Source: Armatimonadota bacterium (GTDB taxonomy: Bacteria > Armatimonadota > UBA5829 > DTLH01). Taken from it: a stretch of 64,000 nucleotides of DNA. Numbering within the stretch: the stretch's first letter is position 1; each line of letters begins with the position of its first letter. The translations under genes and the position numbers were made by a program. The DNA lies in contig JAKPFN010000014.1 in the NCBI GenBank assembly GCA_029551395.1, forward strand, positions 319 to 64,318, written 5' to 3'. The notes below the pieces were generated by a model. It did not search any database. It was not told where the DNA came from and saw only the letters and a list, made by a program, of their open reading frames with translations. Below, one piece after another: positions 26,144-37,211 of this stretch.

Positions 26144-28288
26144 TCACGCTGAATAGAATCCACTCAGATAATGTTTACAGATGAACTGCTCTACACGCCA
26201 GGTAGACTTGCCATTTTCTGTAAACTCATAAACGCCATTAGCCCGAGTCATAAAGCCGAGTTCCACCATGTAGCGCCTTGTTGCGCAGTAATCAGAACAG
26301 ACCTGGGCAATACCCTCAGTAACATCGCGCTCGCTGTAATTTTTCATCTCAGACAGGCCAAAACGCATCACTGCATCAGGCGATATATTCGCTACCGGAT
26401 TTACCTTCCGGCGCTTCTCAGCCAGTCTCATATCAACATCCGATAGCTTAGGCTCTCTGCGTCGAATTCCTCCGAAAACCGCTTTAGCTGCAATTTTCTG
26501 CAGCTTTGCATCACCATTTCGCATCAATTCCTGCAGTGCGACCTGCGAGCTTACCGTTCCCATCTCACCAAGCGCTGCTGTCGCTGCTTCGCGGACTTGC
26601 CTTTCCTTACTGTTTGTCATCTCGATTAAAAGATGCTCAGCCTGCCCTATTTGCAACCTGCCAAGTGCTGTTATAGCTACAGCCTTTTCCTGCCCTTTGC
26701 TGTTTTGTACAAGGTTTATCAACTCTTCAGCAGATGCAATATCGCCAATCTCCGATAGCGCGAAGACCGCCGCAACCCTGACTGCAGTCTCAGTATCCGA
26801 AAGAAAACCTCTTATAAGGCCCGAGTAATCACCTGCTTGCAGATGTCCCAGTACTCTAACAGCCTGGCTGCGAAGCTCTAAAGGTCCATGTTCCGCAATA
26901 GATGCAGCCTCCTTCGCTAAATCATCTAACAGCCCGCCGCCGATGTCTTCCACACGAAGCGGAGACCACTTTTCACGAGTACGCAGGTCGTTCAGAAACT
27001 GCTCCCGGCTGACTTCATACATTGTTCCTGGACAAAGCGACCTTGCTATATACTCAAGCCCCAGCAGACCGGCAGCCTGTTGCTTCACATCGTTGCTTTT
27101 CAGCATCTTCAGCAACTCATCACCAAAACGCGCTCCAGTTCTGACCAATGCCTGCAGAACCCATGAAGACTGGCTCTCCTTACTACCGTATGTTGCAATA
27201 AAACGCTCCTTCAGAATAGGAAACGCTGCATCAGCATAACACATCAATGTATTCACAAAGAGTACTGCAGGGCAGGAGTGTCTACAAGCCTGAATCATAT
27301 CCAGCAGTATTCCGGCCTTTGCCTGTTCATCCGCAGAATGCATGACGAGCCTGTCCAGAAGCATGTAAGCATCTCGTGACGCCATATTCGACATACCATC
27401 TCTAGGATCAACAATCCCGCACCTGGAAGCATACTGCACCAGGATATCCCGAGCACGCGATGCCCTTGGCTCCTGTCCAGAAAAACAGCAGTCCAGCACA
27501 ATATCTATTGCTTCACTTCCAAGGTGAGGCAGCAGAATGGCAAGATTTCCGATTGCATCTTCTGCTGTTACCATCAACTCTATCAAACGCTCTGGAGACT
27601 TTCTGAGGACTATACTTAACCTCTCCGGCGCATTTGGTTCATCGTTGAACATACGCAAAAGAACTGCAATCTCAGCTTGTACTACTTCTTTGAACCTGTC
27701 ATCCGGGATGGCAGGGATTTCTTGATGTTCGGTCATTTGCTCCATTACCTCTTTCAGTGCTTGACGCGCACGATGCAGGCGGCTCATAACCGTACCCTTG
27801 GATATCTCAAGGAACCTGGAAATCTCGTCATAGGACAACTCTTCATAATAATGCAGGACCAGGACAAGGCGGTGGGACGCTGACAGCGATGCAAGACCAT
27901 AGGACATCCGGGCATAAATAGACCGGTCTTCCATATCATCTTCAGCCGCAGCAATCTGTTCTTCTTCCAGCTCAACAAACTGATGGCTGTTGCGTCGGTA
28001 CCACATCCTGCAGACGTTGAGTGTCAGAGCCTTCAACCAGCCTGCGAACCTCTCCGGGTTGCGAAGCTGCCCCAGCTTCAGGTAGGCTTCCACAAATGAG
28101 TCATGCGCTAACTCCTCAGCATCCGGCACATTGCCGGCCATATTGAGGCATACACGATAAACCATTGTGTAGTACCGGTCCATAAGCAGGCTGAACGCCT
28201 CTTTGTCTCCCTCCAACACTGCTGAAATTAATTTACTATCGTCCACCTTATCTGCTCCTGCACAATGTTGCATTGAGCACCACTGCAT
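26144..28288 (-). CDS. ECF-type sigma factor fused to a long C-terminal extension containing HEAT/PBS-lyase-like repeats
   Basis: Track ORF 26144..28339, of which ~715 aa are used. The N-terminal ~200 aa have sigma region 2 ('DKEAFSLLMDRYYTMVYRVCLNMAG...DSFVEAYLKL') and region 4 ('LSYDEISRFLEISKGTVMSRLHRARQALK'). Residues ~560-650 carry repeats 'AVRVAAVFALSEIGD', 'AVAITALGRLQ' and 'VREAATAALGEMG'. Confidence 0.7.
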   Translation of the reverse strand: MQWCSMQHCAGADKVDDSKLISAVLEGDKEAFSLLMDRYYTMVYRVCLNMAGNVPDAEELAHDSFVEAYLKLGQLRNPERFAGWLKALTLNVCRMWYRRNSHQFVELEEEQIAAAEDDMEDRSIYARMSYGLASLSASHRLVLVLHYYEELSYDEISRFLEISKGTVMSRLHRARQALKEVMEQMTEHQEIPAIPDDRFKEVVQAEIAVLLRMFNDEPNAPERLSIVLRKSPERLIELMVTAEDAIGNLAILLPHLGSEAIDIVLDCCFSGQEPRASRARDILVQYASRCGIVDPRDGMSNMASRDAYMLLDRLVMHSADEQAKAGILLDMIQACRHSCPAVLFVNTLMCYADAAFPILKERFIATYGSKESQSSWVLQALVRTGARFGDELLKMLKSNDVKQQAAGLLGLEYIARSLCPGTMYEVSREQFLNDLRTREKWSPLRVEDIGGGLLDDLAKEAASIAEHGPLELRSQAVRVLGHLQAGDYSGLIRGFLSDTETAVRVAAVFALSEIGDIASAEELINLVQNSKGQEKAVAITALGRLQIGQAEHLLIEMTNSKERQVREAATAALGEMGTVSSQVALQELMRNGDAKLQKIAAKAVFGGIRRREPKLSDVDMRLAEKRRKVNPVANISPDAVMRFGLSEMKNYSERDVTEGIAQVCSDYCATRRYMVELGFMTRANGVYEFTENGKSTWRVEQFICKHYLSGFYSA

Positions 28289-28537
28289 TTTTGCGCTTCC
28301 AAATAGAGGATGCAGCAACTTGCCAAATATTCCATTCATCGGGGAAATTTGTTCTTTATCAGAAAAAAACTCCGCTGTCTTGAATCACTACCCATTGTAT
28401 CCTATGTCGTCCAGCTATTACAGCATCCTGGCTTATTCTGTGTGTTGTCATGCTCTACAGTGGGTATGTTAACTGTAAAGCCTGCAAAATTAAATCAACG
28501 CAGCTTCCGAAAAATGATTGTGCATCAGGAGGTCAAT

Positions 28538-29714: not shown

Positions 29715-29741
29715 AGGGGACGGCTTATTGAACCGTCCCCT
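29715..29741. terminator. Hairpin between convergent genes: 9-bp stem, 9-nt loop
   Basis: aggggacgg-cttattgaa-ccgtcccct, located between the stop of the gldA-like gene (29689) and the stop of protease paralog 1 (29779). On the plus strand 'ggatttatcat' follows. Confidence 0.45.
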
Positions 29742-29778: not shown

Positions 29779-32595
29779 CTACTTCACAACCTTCACTTTT
29801 ATGACAACCTGATCGCTTGTCCTCAGCCCATCGATAACAAAGAACCTGTACTCTATCTCCTTTGGTTCATTCGGAGCTGTAGCTTTCAGTATTGGGTCTT
29901 TAGAGAGATCAGCTCTCAGCCAATGTCCATTCTCAGACCATCTGTATATCAGTGGCTGGCCTTCAGGATCGTAGCTCTTTGATCCGTCGATAACATACTC
30001 TTCGCCGCACTTCACTACAATCTCTTCTGGAGCAATAGCCACCGGTTTCAAGTTCTTCTCCTTGATGGCATCCGGGATAACAGGCTTCACTACAGGCGTG
30101 ATGCCTGTCGATGGCTGCAGACTTGTCCGCTTGGTGAATATACCACGAATCCTCTCACCTCTGAAGAATGCTTCGTTCATCTCAGTAAGCGGCAGCCAGT
30201 GGAATTCAGCCTGGTCTCCGCTGACAATCTTCAGAAGGATCAGCCCTTCAACGCTCCAAACATTCGGAGTGAAGGCAGTGTCAGTCTTTGCGGTTCCATA
30301 GGGGTTCCAGACTCCAATCGCACCATCTACGTCATCTGTGTCCGGCGAGTCCCAGGTCGAGTCAGTCTCTCTGGGAATGATAAACCGTCCGTCCTTGTCG
30401 GTATTGCCCATGAACTTCGGTCTATCGGCAAAATATTTGGTCCCAGCATCCTGTGCGCCGGTCTGTGACACATGGTATACATAAACAGCCGCGCCTGAAA
30501 GCGGCTCATCGTTAACATCATATATCTGCAGAACATGCCCAAGGCTTGGAATCAACCTGCCTTGAGTTCCCCAGAACTTCTCTCCCCGATACCCGGCAAA
30601 ATACTGCACTTGACCTGCATGTGCCGGATGCAGCCACATGTGGCAGTAGTCCATAAGCGGGGTATATCCGCCGCCGCAGGGAATAGTCTGCGCTGAAGAG
30701 CACATTACGCTGCCATGCGACACATCCGGTAGAAGCTCTCCACCCGCATAATACTCACCATTCTCATCTTTCAGAAAGATGTTGTCTACCTTTACCGGAT
30801 AGCCATACAGGTCTGGCAGTGCTATGCAGCAGTGACCAAACTCATGAACCAGCCCAGATGATATAACCAATTGATTCCCTGACTTGTTGTCGGCAACAGG
30901 GAAACCTCCGTCATAAAGGTGTGCTTCAAGGTCGTAAGGCTCCTTACTGAGGTCATCCGACGAAAGCGCATAGAACGCATCGGTGCGGATGGCATCTTTA
31001 ACACCAACAGGGCTTGTAGTCGGGTAGACTGCTTCCTGAAGCATCAAAGTGACTCTGTGAGCCTGTGCGTTGAACCAGTCATAGTAGCTGAACGAACCGA
31101 CCATATTGATTTTCTTAGCATCATAGTCGTCATCCAGTACGCATTGCTTATACCCCCAGCGCATAGCACGGGCAGTATTCAACTCGCAGCGTTCGTTGTT
31201 GGCTTCACAGATTTCCCCTATCTTCTTATCAGGGTCTACTGTTACTTTAATCCATACCGGATCATTGGGCCAGGTATAGTTGAAAGTCAATTTGATCTCT
31301 TCCCGCGGCTTCATTGACTTCTCAATGACCTGCTCTTGAGTCTCGACTGGTTTCTCATCCTTATCCAGCCGGAAATTACCGTTTTTATCAGGAATAAGCT
31401 GGAACCGGACTACTGCACCTGCAGGAACGTCTCTATAGCCAAAGTTGGCAATATGCGCCACAGCCTGCACCCGCTCTCCTGGAGCCGGCCACCATTTAGG
31501 ACCATTAGATGAGTAACGAGGAAGCCGCGAAACACAATACAAGTCCAAATCAGGCTGTTCAGGAGAGATAACTTCAATGTTATAGGCGTCTTTCATCCCT
31601 CTGAACTCGGCAGTGAGCTTGCACTTGCCGACTGACTTGCCAGTTACAATACCGTCTTTGTCTACGGTGGCAACTTTCTCATCAGATGTGGACCACTTGA
31701 TAAACGGTTTTGCGTCAAAATCAGACCAGTTGCCATATCCCGCGATATTCTCAGTGATGCGAACCATCTGTCCATCCAGCTTAGCCCGCATGCCAAACTG
31801 CTTGGGACATCCGTTGACGACTCTCTTGTCAGACGGCACATCACACGCATCAGGATCTATCTTTATGGCAGTAAACGGAGCTGTCGCGAAATAATCCCGG
31901 TAAACAACGCTTATCATATCACGAGACAGCTCAGTTTTAGCCTCTTTGCGGATGATAAGTTCGTCCATAGCCGCATCTGAGGTCTCATCGCCGATGTAAA
32001 GCCGCTTATCATCCATCTTCTGAACATCAAAAAACTGGTTGCCGCTTGCAATCGGGCCATCGACAGCAACCTTATCGATCCAAAGCGGCATACCAAGCGG
32101 CTTATTATCTTTACTGAACCACACGATAGCGATATGGTGCCACTGTCCGGCCTTCCAGTCAGAAACATCAGCACGGGATGATGTAACTTTCTTTGGAGAG
32201 GCCATAACATACCGGAGGAATCCCTTTTCAGACTTCTCCACAAGCAGTCCGTTCTTATTCATATCACCAACACGGAGGATAACATGCCTCTTACCATCAT
32301 TCCCATTCCAGTTGGGCTTTATCCAAAAACTGATGTAACCAGATTCCTGCGAAAGATTGACTCCTTCGATGGCTGCAGGTCTTGAAAGCAAGACTCCTTT
32401 TCCCGCAGTGCCTGGAACTTCAGGAAGTCCGGCTGCAGGACTGCTCATTCTAGCGCTATTATCAAAAGCAGCATCACTGAACCAACTAAGCAAGGTTTCT
32501 GCCGACTCCAAATCTGCACAAAACAGCGGAGCAGCAGCCAACAACCCGAGCAGTACAAATAATACAATTAACCTCAAAATGCGGCTCCTTTCCAT
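29779..32595 (-). CDS. Large secreted multidomain zinc metalloprotease-like protein, paralog 1 (LamG-like + BIG2 + M6/InhA-like zincin + C-terminal Ig/PKD-like)
   Basis: 938 aa with a signal peptide 'LIVLFVLLGLLAAAPLFCA'. LamG/ConA-like block ('FWIKPNWNGNDG...QWHHIAIVW'). BIG2 ('VATVDKDGIVTGKSVGKCKLTAEF'). Zincin motif 'LVHEFGHCCIALPDLYGYP'. C-terminal 'SKSYDPEGQPLIYRW'. Confidence 0.6.
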   Translation of the reverse strand: MERSRILRLIVLFVLLGLLAAAPLFCADLESAETLLSWFSDAAFDNSARMSSPAAGLPEVPGTAGKGVLLSRPAAIEGVNLSQESGYISFWIKPNWNGNDGKRHVILRVGDMNKNGLLVEKSEKGFLRYVMASPKKVTSSRADVSDWKAGQWHHIAIVWFSKDNKPLGMPLWIDKVAVDGPIASGNQFFDVQKMDDKRLYIGDETSDAAMDELIIRKEAKTELSRDMISVVYRDYFATAPFTAIKIDPDACDVPSDKRVVNGCPKQFGMRAKLDGQMVRITENIAGYGNWSDFDAKPFIKWSTSDEKVATVDKDGIVTGKSVGKCKLTAEFRGMKDAYNIEVISPEQPDLDLYCVSRLPRYSSNGPKWWPAPGERVQAVAHIANFGYRDVPAGAVVRFQLIPDKNGNFRLDKDEKPVETQEQVIEKSMKPREEIKLTFNYTWPNDPVWIKVTVDPDKKIGEICEANNERCELNTARAMRWGYKQCVLDDDYDAKKINMVGSFSYYDWFNAQAHRVTLMLQEAVYPTTSPVGVKDAIRTDAFYALSSDDLSKEPYDLEAHLYDGGFPVADNKSGNQLVISSGLVHEFGHCCIALPDLYGYPVKVDNIFLKDENGEYYAGGELLPDVSHGSVMCSSAQTIPCGGGYTPLMDYCHMWLHPAHAGQVQYFAGYRGEKFWGTQGRLIPSLGHVLQIYDVNDEPLSGAAVYVYHVSQTGAQDAGTKYFADRPKFMGNTDKDGRFIIPRETDSTWDSPDTDDVDGAIGVWNPYGTAKTDTAFTPNVWSVEGLILLKIVSGDQAEFHWLPLTEMNEAFFRGERIRGIFTKRTSLQPSTGITPVVKPVIPDAIKEKNLKPVAIAPEEIVVKCGEEYVIDGSKSYDPEGQPLIYRWSENGHWLRADLSKDPILKATAPNEPKEIEYRFFVIDGLRTSDQVVIKVKVVK

Positions 32596-32686
32596 TATGA
32601 ATCACTAAAACAAAGGAATGGGATTAGGGGTTTTGACGAACAGCCTTGCCCTGAGATAGAGAGCAGGATTTAACACCTGACCAATT

Positions 32687-33268
32687 CTACTCCTCAATGG
32701 AAAACAGGAATGTACAAGGCAGTTTACCGCTGCTTGCCAGCGCTGAAGTTCTGACTGTGCAAGACACCTTACGCCCCAGCGCGTTTTGGAGATGATGCTT
32801 CACATGTCCGCCGCAGCAGTAGCAGTAAGTAATTGACACACTCTCTTTAGCTTTTGGCAAACAGACACACCTGTAATGCTCCAGCCCTTCAGGTGCAAAG
32901 CTCACAAGCACTTTTCCATCATCCTGCATTGTCACGCTGTGCCCGAAAACAAATCTGGCTTCATTTGCAGCCATTATTCTGTCTTCCAGGCTTTCGTGAG
33001 TCTTAGCTATTCCCTTGCTGATCTCTTCTCTTTTTCCTCCAAGACAACAAGCACAGGCTTCGCGGATCGAATACCGGGTTTTAGGTTCGATCAGCGCATC
33101 CATCCGGCTCATTGCACATCTCAGCCAATCGGCCTTCTTCTCTGGAGAAGTGTTTCTTCTAATCAACTCACCACCTGCCATAATCTCATCCATTACTTCC
33201 CGAGAAACCCCAGCCTGCTCAAGCTTAGCTGCCAGAACCTTTATCCGGCCATACTCGTAATCAGCCAT
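32687..33268 (-). CDS. Cysteine-rich cytoplasmic protein of unknown function (putative metal-binding)
   Basis: 193 aa with no signal peptide. Cys clusters 'CACCLGG', 'CVCLP' and 'CYCCGGHVKHH'. It lies between the two protease paralogs on the same strand. Confidence 0.4.
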   Translation of the reverse strand: MADYEYGRIKVLAAKLEQAGVSREVMDEIMAGGELIRRNTSPEKKADWLRCAMSRMDALIEPKTRYSIREACACCLGGKREEISKGIAKTHESLEDRIMAANEARFVFGHSVTMQDDGKVLVSFAPEGLEHYRCVCLPKAKESVSITYCYCCGGHVKHHLQNALGRKVSCTVRTSALASSGKLPCTFLFSIEE

Positions 33269-33312
33269 TTACCTCATCCCTTTAAAAAGCATTGTTATCG
33301 CAGCTTGCAATG

Positions 33313-33347
33313 AAAAATCAGCCTCCGAAAGCAAATCCGGAGGCTGA
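33313..33347 (-). terminator. Rho-independent terminator downstream of protease paralog 2
   Basis: On the minus strand: stem tcagcctccg, a 10-nt loop, stem cggaggctga, followed by UUUUU (complement of aaaaa at 33313..33317). Confidence 0.6.
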
Positions 33348-33366
33348 CAGTTTTATCGCATAACAA

Positions 33367-36177
33367 TTACTCTACTACATTTACCTTGATGCTTACCGGC
33401 TCGCTCACGCGCAGGCCATCGATTACATACAGCCTGTACCTAACCTCTCCCGGCTTGCCAGGAGCCTTGATAGTGCAGGTGGAATCCGTAGATAGATCAG
33501 GCTTCAGCCATCCTGCCTGCTCTCCCCATCTGTAGGTAAGAGGCTGGCCTTCCGGATCGTAGCTCTTTGACCCATCAAGCGTGAACTCCTCGTTGCACTT
33601 CACTGTCAGTTCCTGCGGGGTTACAACAGCAACCGGCTTCAGATTGGTCTTCCTGATCGATTCAGGAATCTCAGGCCTTACAACCCGCGTTATACCGTTT
33701 GATGGTTGCAAGCTGGTCCTTATGTGGTAGACTCCCCTGTTCTTGTTGCCTTTAAAGAATTGCTCATTGAACTCCGTAAGAGACATCCAGTAGAACTCAG
33801 TCTGATTACCGCTCACAATCTTAATGAGCAACAGCCCTTCCACGGTCCAGACATTGGGGGTGAACGCAGTGTCCGTCTTCACCCGGCCAAACGGGTTCCA
33901 GACGCTGATTGAACCATCTACCTCGTCCGTATCAGGATCATCCCATGACCGATCCGTTTCATTTGGGAACCGCCAGCGGCCGTCTTTATCCGTATTGCCG
34001 ACGAACTTCGGCCTGTCCGGGAAATACTTAGTGCCCGCATCCTGGAGGGATGTGTTAATAACGTGATACACATATACCGCAGCACCGGAAAGAGGTTGAT
34101 CGTTGATGTCATAAATCTTCAACCAGTTCTCGAACGCAGGAATCAACCTGCCCTGAATTCCCCAAAACCTGTTGCCTCTGTAACCGGCAAAGTACTGAAT
34201 CTCTCCAGCATGTGCCGGATGCAGCCACATATGGCAGTGATTCATAAGCGAATCATAACTCACGCCACATGGCACGCCGTTAGCTGATGAGAGCGGCACG
34301 ATGTTGTCTCTATCTCGAATGAGCGGCATCAGTTCGCTGCCTGCATACGGTTTACCATTCTCATCCTTCAAGAGCACCGACCAGTAGTTCACCGGATAAC
34401 CGTAAAGGTCCGGCAGAGCCACACAGGTATGCCCGAACTCATGCAGGATTGCCGCATCTATCGCCATCAGGTCGATAGGCTCTCTGACAGGGAATCCTCC
34501 ATCATAGTAAGGACCTTCTTTTTCCCAAGGCTCATCTTCCCACCTGGTATCTCCAAGCTTCAGTGCATATGTTTTATCGTTCCGCAGTGTTTCCCGCACC
34601 CCATCAGGGCTTGTGGTAGGCAATACGGTCTGCCGCAGCAGTGCCTCGAACCTGTAGAGCTGACCATTGATCCAGTCATACTCGCTGAACGATCCTACAT
34701 GATTGATCTTCCGATTGTTGTAGAAATCCTCGAGTTGCGCCGGATCGTAACCCATGTGAAGCGCGCGGGCTATGTTCATCTCACAGCGCTCGTTGTTAGC
34801 TTCGCAAATCTCTGCAATCTTGTTTGCCGGGTCTACGGTCACGCGAACCCATATAGGATCATCAGACCATGTCCAGTCAAACTCTACAGATTCCTCTTCC
34901 CTGGGCTTCAACGCTTTGGAGATGACCTTGCGCTGGGTAGCGATGGGTGTTTCGCTTCTGTCCAGCCTTAAATTGTTGTTGGAGTCTGGAATCAGCTCAA
35001 AAACAACCTCAACTCCCGCCGGAGCAGTCTTGTAACCAAAGTTGATAATCCGCGCAACGAACCTGACCTTCTCACCAGGAGATGGTCTGTCCTTGTCATC
35101 GCCGTCCTTGTACTTAGGGAATCTCTCCACATACACCAGATCCAGGTCCGGCTGCTCGATTGGAATAACCTCAAGCTGATAGGTTGCCTTCATCCCTCTG
35201 AACTCGGCTGTTAAGGTGCATTTCCCGAGAGATTTACCTGTCACCCGTCCATTGGCATTCACGGTAGCAATCTTCGGGTCGGATGTAGTCCATTTGATAA
35301 ACGGCTTTGCATCGAATTCTGACCATTGGCCGTAACGAACGGCAAAATCGGTGACTCTGGTCATCACCCCGTTCATCTCAGCCATCAGACCATACTGCTT
35401 CTCGCATCCAATGACCACACGTGGATCCATTGGGCCATACATCGGTCTCAAGTCTATTGCAACCCTGGTATAAGGCGCAGAGCGGAAGAAATCCCGATAT
35501 ACCGTGGCAATCTGCCCATGAGGACCTTCAGTATCGAACCTGTCCCGCATGATCAGCTCATCGATCACACAGTCTGACGTAGCATCTCCGATAATTACCC
35601 GCTTATCTGCCATCTTGTCTGGATTCATGAACTCGCTTCCGCCAAAGATTGGACCAGCAACAGCCCATTTGTCTATCCAGAGCGGCAGTCCGAGCGGCTT
35701 ACCTCTTACTGACATCCATGCTATTGCAACATGGTGCCACTGTCCGGCTTTCCAGTTAGAGACATCAGCACGAGCAGCAGTAACTTTCGTCGGGCTAGCC
35801 ATCACATAGCGCAGCATGCCTTTGTCCGACTTCTCAACCAAAAGACCATTCGTAGCCGGGTCACCGATTGTAAGTATTCGGTGAGTCTTTCCATCATTTC
35901 CATTCCAGTTCGGCTTGATCCAGAACGTTATAAGCCCGTTGTCCTGCTTGAGAAGCGGATTTTCGATGGCTGCAGACCTACTGAGTACAACTCCTTTGCC
36001 TGCTGTGCCTGGAGCTTCAGGAAGTCCGGCAACAGGCTTCGCTGTGCGGACACTCTTCGGCACGGTTGAATCGGTAAACCAGGCTACAACCGCCTCAGTC
36101 GTGTCCTGCGCAGTCGCGAGAGATGGCGCAAGAAGCACTGCAGATACCAGTACTATAGACAACACTAATTTCAACAA
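33367..36177 (-). CDS. Large secreted multidomain zinc metalloprotease-like protein, paralog 2
   Basis: 936 aa. Same architecture as 29779..32595 at roughly 50-55% identity by eye. Signal peptide, 'FWIKPNWNGNDG', and the zincin motif 'ILHEFGHTCVALPDLYGYP'. Confidence 0.6.
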   Translation of the reverse strand: MLKLVLSIVLVSAVLLAPSLATAQDTTEAVVAWFTDSTVPKSVRTAKPVAGLPEAPGTAGKGVVLSRSAAIENPLLKQDNGLITFWIKPNWNGNDGKTHRILTIGDPATNGLLVEKSDKGMLRYVMASPTKVTAARADVSNWKAGQWHHVAIAWMSVRGKPLGLPLWIDKWAVAGPIFGGSEFMNPDKMADKRVIIGDATSDCVIDELIMRDRFDTEGPHGQIATVYRDFFRSAPYTRVAIDLRPMYGPMDPRVVIGCEKQYGLMAEMNGVMTRVTDFAVRYGQWSEFDAKPFIKWTTSDPKIATVNANGRVTGKSLGKCTLTAEFRGMKATYQLEVIPIEQPDLDLVYVERFPKYKDGDDKDRPSPGEKVRFVARIINFGYKTAPAGVEVVFELIPDSNNNLRLDRSETPIATQRKVISKALKPREEESVEFDWTWSDDPIWVRVTVDPANKIAEICEANNERCEMNIARALHMGYDPAQLEDFYNNRKINHVGSFSEYDWINGQLYRFEALLRQTVLPTTSPDGVRETLRNDKTYALKLGDTRWEDEPWEKEGPYYDGGFPVREPIDLMAIDAAILHEFGHTCVALPDLYGYPVNYWSVLLKDENGKPYAGSELMPLIRDRDNIVPLSSANGVPCGVSYDSLMNHCHMWLHPAHAGEIQYFAGYRGNRFWGIQGRLIPAFENWLKIYDINDQPLSGAAVYVYHVINTSLQDAGTKYFPDRPKFVGNTDKDGRWRFPNETDRSWDDPDTDEVDGSISVWNPFGRVKTDTAFTPNVWTVEGLLLIKIVSGNQTEFYWMSLTEFNEQFFKGNKNRGVYHIRTSLQPSNGITRVVRPEIPESIRKTNLKPVAVVTPQELTVKCNEEFTLDGSKSYDPEGQPLTYRWGEQAGWLKPDLSTDSTCTIKAPGKPGEVRYRLYVIDGLRVSEPVSIKVNVVE

Positions 36178-36191
36178 CGCACAACTCCTTC

Positions 36192-37211
36192 TTATTGTTC
36201 TATTTCAACACCCTTGCCAGTCTCAGCAGACTTGTAGAGTGCATCAAGTATCTGCATGATGTGCAGGCCATGCTCTCCCGTAGAAATGCATTCAGTCTCA
36301 CCTTTTATGCACGAAATAAAGTGCTTGATCTCCATTTCATGCCCGGAGAGGTTCGGGAACTGCGGCTGAATGTCAACGGATGTGCCGCGAACATCCTTGT
36401 AAATCCTCAGTGGATCGAACTCAGCTCCGCCTTCGGTTCCCATAAGCTGCGTATAGATTTTCTCTTTGTCAATATGAGACTCCCAGCTTGCTTCCAGCAT
36501 CACAGTCGCGCCATTTTCCAGCTTAACAAAACCTGCAGCAAGGTCTTCTACATCATAAATGCGGCCCGGTTCGTTGGCTCGCTTGGCTCTGAGCATCGAA
36601 TATGTCGATCCCATTACATAAACCGGCTTCGGATTGCCCATTAACCACAATGCAAGGTCCAGCACGTGTACACCAAGATCAATCAATGGACCTCCACCTG
36701 CAAGTTTCTTGTTGGTAAACCAGCCGCTCAGGAATTTGCAGCAAGACCTTCTGACCCATCCTGTCTTGGCATAGTAGATCTCTCCAAGATCCCCATTCTG
36801 AATGAACTCCTTCAGAAGCTGAGAATCGCCTCTGAAACGGTTGTTGAAGCCCATCATGAACAGCTTGCCGGACTTCTTTCCTGCCTCTACCATCCGAGCG
36901 CCTTCCACCGCGTTCATGGCAAGTGGTTTCTCACATAAAACGTGTTTTCCTGCTTCAAACGCTGCCACTGCTATTTCCGCGTGGGTTGAATTTGGGGTGG
37001 AAACAATGACTGCATCGATCTCATCCATTTTCATGAGATCTTTGTAATCAGTAATAACATGGGGCACGGAAAAGTCGTTGGCCAATCTATTCGCGCGTTC
37101 TTCGTTGATGTCGCATATCGCGGTTATCTCTGCATCAGATACTTTTGCCAAACCTCGTGCATGCACCGTTCCTATGCCGGCGCCAATAATCCCGACTTTG
37201 ACCTTCTTCAT
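36192..37211 (-). CDS. Gfo/Idh/MocA-family NAD(P)-dependent oxidoreductase
   Basis: 339 aa. N-terminal 'VGIIGAGIGTVHARG' Rossmann fold and the 'EKPLA' motif. 14 bp upstream of protease paralog 2. Confidence 0.85.
   Translation of the reverse strand: MKKVKVGIIGAGIGTVHARGLAKVSDAEITAICDINEERANRLANDFSVPHVITDYKDLMKMDEIDAVIVSTPNSTHAEIAVAAFEAGKHVLCEKPLAMNAVEGARMVEAGKKSGKLFMMGFNNRFRGDSQLLKEFIQNGDLGEIYYAKTGWVRRSCCKFLSGWFTNKKLAGGGPLIDLGVHVLDLALWLMGNPKPVYVMGSTYSMLRAKRANEPGRIYDVEDLAAGFVKLENGATVMLEASWESHIDKEKIYTQLMGTEGGAEFDPLRIYKDVRGTSVDIQPQFPNLSGHEMEIKHFISCIKGETECISTGEHGLHIMQILDALYKSAETGKGVEIEQ

Follow-up and report, generated by a model that had tools for sequence, protein, structure and literature searches.

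The 64,000-nt stretch of an Armatimonadota contig analysed here (JAKPFN010000014.1, positions 319–64,318; hereafter the window) carries on its reverse strand two genes for large multidomain proteins, paralog 1 (p1) and paralog 2 (p2), each of which holds an HEXXH zinc-site motif followed by an Asp. An exact-sequence look-up returned p1 as a 'hypothetical protein' or 'CARDB domain-containing protein' of Armatimonadota. The order of parts is the same in both proteins: signal peptide, LamG-like domain, Big_2 domain, CARDB domain, HEXXH domain, β-sandwich and PKD-type C-terminus (Table 1). No third copy was found in the window.

Full-length BLASTP alignment of the two proteins (all 938 residues, 7 gaps) gave 59% identity and 73% positives. 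The initial annotation of this DNA had put their divergence at 45–50%, which the alignment corrects to 41%. Identity varied along the proteins, with 66% in the LamG-like domain, 58% in the Big_2 region, 56% in CARDB, 55% in the HEXXH domain, 70% in the following sandwich (the best conserved domain between the paralogs) and 60% in the PKD-like module. The zinc motifs, HEFGHCCIALPDLYGYP in p1 and HEFGHTCVALPDLYGYP in p2, read exactly as first described and are intact in both copies, and FWIKPNWNGNDG is common to both proteins. Likewise, both open reading frames (ORFs) of ~937 aa are present as annotated; the two genes are not, however, directly adjacent, as an ORF with a DUF6144 match lies between them. 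The TTG start of p2 is preceded at 7 nt by AAGGAG. For p1, no ribosome-binding site precedes the ATG, and AAGGAG lies 7 nt before a TTG that is in frame at codon 7 (32577; region 32575–32595); this TTG may be the true start, in which case the p1 product would have 932 aa. Both N-termini were read as Sec signal peptides, in which a charged n-region is followed by a hydrophobic core of 17 residues and a cleavage site of small residues; both proteins would accordingly be secreted.

Table 1 Features of the p1/p2 locus (window coordinates).
Feature	Position	Strand	Details
p1, 'CC-type' copy (HEFGHCC)	29779..32595	-	ORF, 938 aa, ATG start
p1 signal peptide MERSRILRLIVLFVLLGLLAAAPLFCA	32515..32595	-	Read from sequence
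p1 LamG/ConA-like domain (aa 88–219), includes FWIKPNWNGNDG	31939..32334	-	Pfam Laminin_G_3, E 4.7e-6, 27.3 bits vs 27.6 cutoff
p1 Big_2 Ig-like domain (aa 299–329)	31609..31701	-	Pfam 25.3 bits vs 22.8 cutoff; PDB 6n1a match
p1 CARDB seven-stranded sandwich (aa 345–465), module domain 1	31201..31563	-	Pfam; Foldseek 3idu; AlphaFold2 pLDDT >95
p1 HEXXH α/β domain, putative catalytic (aa 466–685)	30541..31200	-	AlphaFold2 secondary structure
p1 zinc-site motif H584-E585-F-G-H588-C-C-I-A-L-P-D595-L-Y597	30805..30846	-	Invariant H, E, H, D, Y
p1 M648, candidate Met-turn methionine	30652..30654	-	53 residues past D595; 9 before predicted C-terminal helix (aa 657–665)
p1 prealbumin/CarboxypepD_reg-like sandwich (aa 686–835), module domain 3	30091..30540	-	AlphaFold2 model; weak PF13620 matches in relatives
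p1 C-terminal PKD-like module (aa 849–938)	29782..30051	-	Sub-threshold Pfam; family profile vs PDB
DUF6144 ORF, Cys-rich, 193 aa, between p2 and p1	32687..33268	-	Pfam 28.9 bits vs 28.8 cutoff; no signal peptide
Intrinsic-terminator-like hairpin just downstream of p2	33310..33348	-	13-bp stem, 6-nt loop, U-run
p2, HEFGHTC copy, p1-like architecture	33367..36177	-	ORF, 936 aa, TTG start
p2 signal peptide MLKLVLSIVLVSAVLLAPSLATA	36109..36177	-	A-x-A cleavage site; read from sequence
p2 CARDB-HEXXH-sandwich module (aa 340–842)	33652..35160	-	Motif HEFGHTCVALPDLY at 34402–34443; candidate Met-turn M645 at 34243–34245
Gfo/Idh/MocA oxidoreductase gene	36192..37211	-	14 nt upstream of p2; not conserved at other loci

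Support for the individual domains differed. Big_2 and CARDB exceeded the Pfam gathering cutoff in both proteins, and the Foldseek search returned 3idu as the best match for CARDB (E 2e-6, template modelling (TM) score 0.69). The LamG-like domain of p1 fell 0.3 bits short of its cutoff and is a clear Pfam match in the distant member P0107 (2.5e-13), whilst the PKD-type C-terminus stayed below the Pfam threshold and was recovered by the family profile, which matched KIAA0319L PKD structures (E 7.6e-6). The LamG/BIG2/PKD architecture proposed earlier thus stood, but it had overlooked CARDB, and what had been taken for a ~450-aa catalytic region is in fact CARDB, an HEXXH domain of ~220 aa and a β-sandwich of ~150 aa. 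The public 'CARDB domain-containing' label, in turn, names a real domain and the only part that current pipelines recognise; it misses both the HEXXH domain and the three-domain unit to which it belongs.

Residues 466–845 matched no model in Pfam, NCBIfam or the PDB sequences, whether single proteins or a close-family profile were used. A profile of just the HEXXH domain, searched exhaustively, retrieved 138 cluster representatives among 1.84 billion, the weaker matches sharing the signature HE(L/W)GH(Q/A)xxLID(L/V)Y. Because an iterated hidden Markov model (HMM) of p1 residues 345–845 covered nearly all of these representatives (about 130) end to end, the conserved evolutionary unit is, judged by profile coverage, a module of ~490 aa made up of CARDB, the HEXXH domain and the prealbumin/CarboxypepD_reg-like sandwich. 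The module occurs in very varied architectures, including proteins with type IX secretion system (T9SS) tails, dockerin, NHL, FG-GAP and F5/8 type C domains.

Residue conservation was counted over 72 diverse members, 20–60% identical to p1. H584, E585, H588, D595 and Y597 were invariant (72/72), so that the HEXXH...D signature, whose conservation among orthologs the initial annotation had left as a decisive question, is a conserved signature of catalytic type and not a chance occurrence. A Met at the position of M648 was found in 71/72 members, 27–72 residues past the Asp (median 47). The spacing between the second His and the Asp is five residues in 45/72 members and six in the remaining 27, p1 and p2 included; one homologous group therefore holds both motif types. 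The Gly of the motif turn is present in 31/72 members (10/27 of the six-residue class) and is replaced by Ala in both paralogs. Directly past the Asp, p1 and p2 have Leu, and 49/72 members have Leu or Val. Cysteines recur at two positions only (VPCG and DxCH), and these within the close family.

AlphaFold2 run on a shallow close-family alignment gave the HEXXH half of the module a predicted local distance difference test (pLDDT) score of 33–47, which was unusable, and was replaced by a run on the 72-sequence alignment (pLDDT 92.6, predicted TM (pTM) score 0.90). In the latter model, residues 1–110 form a seven-stranded sandwich, residues ~118–340 an alpha/beta domain and residues 342–479 a second sandwich. 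HEFGH lies inside a helix (236–245, module numbering) after β-strands and a long backing helix, and the conserved Met is placed in coil, 9 residues ahead of helix 313–321. The predicted order is therefore an HExxH active-site helix, a turn, the Asp, a Tyr at +2, a connecting segment, the Met and a C-terminal helix. Asp-ligand metzincins have been described with this layout of HExxH helix, Asp, Tyr, Met-turn and C-terminal helix (PMC3890501, PMC12237041), and because the predicted order fits that description, we assign the domain provisionally to the Asp-ligand metzincin type.

Database matches at the motif pointed the same way. When a profile of 31 diverse domains was compared with the PDB sequences, each of the top four matches was to a zinc metallopeptidase whose third ligand is Asp, aligned in register: snapalysin (1c7k/4hx3, E 0.016–0.017 over 39 profile positions) and MEROPS M64 (3p1v/4df9, E about 1, motif only). 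Comparison by hhalign with three short fragments from a snapalysin search gave motif-level agreement, with probabilities of 28% and 79%, the latter over 26 columns. Pfam searches with the relatives returned isolated sub-threshold matches to DUF4344, Peptidase_M64, InhA-like_VEG and Peptidase_M43. Since these signals agree but are marginal and limited to the motif, they marginally support a protein that would work like the Asp-ligand zinc peptidases and not membership in any of their families. Three such memberships were considered and rejected. For M64, Pfam PF09471 gave no match to p1 or p2 at E <= 1 and its best relative (E 0.064–0.077) remained below the cutoff; for M7 (snapalysin; NF033628/PF02031), the NCBIfam model NF033628 reached E 0.15 in one member, and the Met lies 53 residues past the Asp.

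The third was M6. The initial annotation had called both proteins M6/InhA-like, and it would follow that they are genuine members of the immune inhibitor A/thuringilysin family. M6 does use an Asp as third ligand and belongs to the metzincin subclan (PMC3890501), and the NCBIfam M6 domain model TIGR03296 was the one most frequently touched (14/31 members, best E 4e-4). Yet this match spans ~20 motif residues (127–147 of the domain) and scores 14.8 bits against a cutoff of 110.8, and Pfam Peptidase_M6 (PF05547) gave no match even at E 10. The accessory VEG and MAM-like domains of InhA are absent, their sole trace being InhA-like_VEG at E 0.12 in one member, and p1 and p2 have six residues between His and Asp, a spacing of M64/CLCA type, where M6 and M7 have five. 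The M6 assignment was accordingly dropped, and we judge it very unlikely.

By its spacing, the p1 and p2 motif is of the igalysin/CLCA type and not of the M6/M7 type. Igalysins (M64, for example Thomasclavelia ramosa IgAse and the Bacteroides structures 3P1V and 4DF9) and CLCA ('CLCAsin') metzincins share the motif HExxHxxxGxxDEY (PMC12237041; CLCA1 preprint). Both p1 (HEFGH-CCIALP-D-L-Y) and p2 (HEFGH-TCVALP-D-L-Y) likewise read HExxH-x6-D with Asp as the putative third ligand and carry a Tyr at D+2, the position of the 'tyrosine switch'. Further likenesses are the long stretch before the Met-turn (about 53–58 residues in IgAse, 71 in CLCA1, 53 to the candidate Met of p1), a C-terminal helix past it (predicted in p1), the seven-stranded β-sandwich directly N-terminal of the catalytic domain as in 3P1V and 4DF9 and, shared with IgAse, a lectin-like N-terminal domain together with an all-beta domain past the catalytic domain, which is enveloping in IgAse. 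The paralogs differ from igalysins in lacking the Glu of DEY (D-L-Y in both) and the Cys triad for structural zinc, of which no equivalent is conserved in the family, in having Ala for the consensus Gly, and in a catalytic domain of ~220 aa as against 269–313. The superfamily also resembles M6/M7, as the 45 members with five-residue spacing have exactly the HExxHxxGxxDxY arrangement (e.g. HELGHQLGLIDLY). Snapalysin was the best PDB sequence match (E 0.016), and the conserved 'LMxG' recalls its 'LMSGG' Met-turn. Snapalysin is, however, a single domain of 132 residues in which the Met lies ~10 residues past the Asp (PMC3890501), compared to 27–72 in the superfamily.

Taken together, we think it likely that both paralogs are multidomain zinc metalloendopeptidases of metzincin type, exported through Sec and with an Asp third ligand, from a family outside Pfam, NCBIfam and the solved structures. 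No account of a metzincin family linked to CARDB turned up in a literature search. In the proposed mechanism, Zn2+ would be held by H584, H588 and D595 (H579, H583 and D590 in p2), E585 would act as the general base activating the zinc-bound water, and Y597 could stabilise the transition state in the role of 'tyrosine switch'. M648 would form the Met-turn beneath the metal site, ahead of the C-terminal helix. The catalytic domain would sit inside a rigid three-domain module with the CARDB and prealbumin-like sandwiches on either side, and the LamG-like, Big_2 and PKD modules would probably direct the enzyme to polymeric, possibly glycosylated, substrates.

Several points weigh against this assignment. 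Likeness to known peptidases is limited to about 20–45 residues round the motif, with marginal statistics, both paralogs have Ala where the consensus turn has Gly, all members are known from sequence alone, and the genomic context, which is variable and mostly housekeeping, carries little information on the substrate. The HEXXH domain could alternatively be no peptidase at all, but a metal-dependent module that hydrolyses or binds something other than protein, or a catalytically silent scaffold within a surface adhesin or lectin. The many adhesion-type domains (CARDB, Big_2, PKD, LamG) would suit such a protein, no curated peptidase model reaches threshold, and the fold of the HEXXH domain is known from the predicted model alone; Foldseek searches of that model against PDB and BFVD gave matches confined to the CARDB and Ig-like sandwiches and none to the HEXXH domain. 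Retention of the full catalytic set (H, E, H, D, Y and Met) in very divergent members nevertheless speaks against a silent scaffold, and every motif-level database signal, though weak, was to peptidases. To our knowledge, the combination of HExxH, Asp and Met-turn is known only from peptidases, which we also counted against a non-peptidase role. We consider that role improbable.

The stretch best conserved in the close family was not the zinc motif but an acidic loop in the C-terminal sandwich (p1 aa 748–780; 30256–30354, reverse strand). It reads W-D-S-P-D-T-D-D-V-D-G ... W-N-P-Y-G ... A-F-T-P-N-V-W, and 'NPF' is nearly invariant superfamily-wide. Its DxDxDG-like pattern suggests a Ca2+ site, or a loop touching the catalytic domain.

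We further investigated the history of the pair. A search of 5.8 billion proteins gave 33 close relatives of p1 and p2, most of which look truncated. Full-length proteins were placed in a neighbour-joining tree (without bootstrap values), where p1 grouped with the downstream copies of the related loci L003 (71% identity) and L008 (64%), and p2 with the upstream L003 copy, L006_4799 and P0042. Because each copy groups with the matching copies of other genomes, the tree places the duplication before the sampled lineages; it is, on this grouping, old, and both copies have been retained, as the initial annotation had supposed. The vicinal Cys pair after the HEXXH of p1 (HE.GHCC) occurred in 5/68 motif instances, namely p1, its closest orthologs L003_7971 and L008_7854, P0036 and P0072; other copies carry TC, TT, TI, TM or VV in its place and the superfamily overall lacks CC. 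Among these instances the vicinal Cys pair is a lineage-specific conserved trait of the p1 orthologs at the end of the predicted active-site helix, and a redox- or metal-switch role for it is speculation.

Tandem copies are common in the family. Six consecutive paralogs were found at L006 (1–16760, in a bin labelled Verrucomicrobiota), two each at L003, L005 and L008, and about three, frameshifted, at L002. A 1681-aa version at L007 (7992–13034) has a C-terminal extension of CarboxypepD_reg and F5/8 type C (galactose-binding-like) domains. In long-read metagenome assemblies, family genes were split by frameshifts into 2–6 abutting calls (L001 8073–10876, L002 87–6912), and the protein databases hold mostly family fragments of 250–600 aa, one of which (P0001) reads DEFGH for HEFGH. 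The family therefore seems rarer and shorter than it is, since frameshift-split calls fill the databases with fragments. Recoding or pseudogenes as the source of the short relatives were rejected, as the calls abut or overlap in the manner of frameshifts in long-read assemblies and full-length genes are present in six genome bins. One HEXXH-domain relative, P0034 (353 aa, 38% identity, on a 1525-bp European Nucleotide Archive (ENA) contig), carries precomputed Pfam matches to TetR_N and GIY-YIG; this odd mix probably means that the short contig is chimeric or was mis-called.

The simplest reading of repeated duplication (2 to 6 tandem copies elsewhere) with both lineages kept would be a wider substrate range for extracellular protein foraging. 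Amplification to as many as six divergent copies and a patchy distribution across phyla might instead point to diversifying secreted toxins or effectors in interbacterial or host conflict. However, the arrays were flanked neither by small immunity-like genes nor by genes of secretion systems or mobile elements, a plasmid search returned no relative of the family, and the window showed no G+C anomaly. The paralog lineages are, moreover, old and orthologous across genomes, without rapid turnover, and we give a toxin role next to no credence.

The surroundings of the pair in the window are ordinary chromosomal core genes. Just downstream of p2, a perfect 13-bp stem (33348–33317, reverse strand) is followed by UUUUU (−31.1 kcal/mol, z = −5.6 against shuffles). 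In agreement with the initial annotation, this predicted terminator separates p2 from the DUF6144 gene and p1 and places the two copies in separate transcription contexts. The gene for a Gfo/Idh/MocA oxidoreductase lies directly upstream of p2 and is probably co-transcribed with it. None of the neighbouring DUF6144, Gfo/Idh/MocA, iron-containing alcohol dehydrogenase (Fe-ADH) and sigma/HEAT genes recurred at the related loci, where no conserved operon partner was found. The DUF6144 gene seems to have entered the array locally, as an insertion specific to this lineage, because the paralogs adjoin directly in L003 and L008; a role for it as functional partner (chaperone or inhibitor) was rejected, as it is absent from all related loci. 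Beyond p1, where the p1 and Fe-ADH genes converge, a GC-rich hairpin (GGGGACGG-n8-CCGTCCCC, 29716–29740) sits between their 3' ends and is a possible bidirectional terminator, with no clear U-run on the p1 strand. The sigma/HEAT gene (26144–28339, reverse strand) encodes a 731-aa fusion of regions 2 and 4 of an extracytoplasmic function (ECF)-type sigma-70 factor with HEAT/PBS-lyase repeats and a C-terminal DUF2087, and it overlaps at its start with that of the divergent Fe-ADH ORF, as called mechanically.

At the related loci, glycoside hydrolase genes of families GH97 and GH38 occur near a family member at L001 (6089–8041 and 13267–15684), together with SusD and fucose isomerase genes, and a GH38 gene occurs near the member at L002 (9218–11587). 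These neighbours hint at a link to glycoprotein or glycan foraging and are absent at the other six loci. At L008 (10848–13067), a dipeptidyl peptidase IV (DPP-IV)/S9 prolyl-oligopeptidase-family gene directly follows the paralog pair, which fits a peptide-degradation pathway.

A narrower version of the secreted metalloendopeptidase assignment would make p1 and p2 glycoprotein-directed, akin to O- or N-glycopeptidases, with LamG, CARDB and PKD reading glycans and the tandem copies covering different glycoproteins. The glycosidase neighbours at L001 and L002 are consistent with this, as are the lectin-type and Ig-type accessory domains, the F5/8 type C (galactose-binding-like) domains and dockerins of distant members, and the probable co-transcription of p2 with the oxidoreductase gene. 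The closest relatives by motif, igalysins and CLCA, act beside O-glycosylated regions (PMC12237041; CLCA1 preprint). Conversely, no glycosidase genes neighbour the family at L003–L008 or in the immediate surroundings of the pair in the window, Pfam and NCBIfam gave no similarity to the glycopeptidase families M60, M66 and M98, and the accessory domains are generic. We regard this refinement as rather doubtful, though less so than a non-peptidase role.

On a broader view, the module may constitute an unrecognised metzincin family that spans the M6/M7 and igalysin/CLCA motifs and would form the evolutionary link between those families. Its arrays of 2–6 old paralogs would equip environmental Armatimonadota, Verrucomicrobiota, Planctomycetota and Bacteroidota with a toolkit of substrate specificities, possibly directed at glycoproteins. 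This is put forward tentatively, with less confidence than the assignment of p1 and p2 as secreted zinc metalloendopeptidases.

If true, the metzincin clan would gain a new family recognisable only by its motif and a Met about 50 residues downstream, a feature of the kind that the authors of the CLCA1 preprint suggest kept CLCA1 from recognition as a metzincin. This would be a new branch of a well-known enzyme class, incremental for enzymology and not a new biological principle, but useful for annotation and for metzincin evolution. Both spacings within one superfamily would offer a concrete system for the origin of the igalysin/CLCA variant, and the old, retained tandem paralogs a natural experiment on the diversification of protease specificity. 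In poorly studied phyla, many proteins now labelled 'hypothetical' or 'CARDB domain-containing' would become predicted extracellular proteases, which would bear on how these heterotrophs acquire nitrogen and carbon from proteins or glycoproteins.

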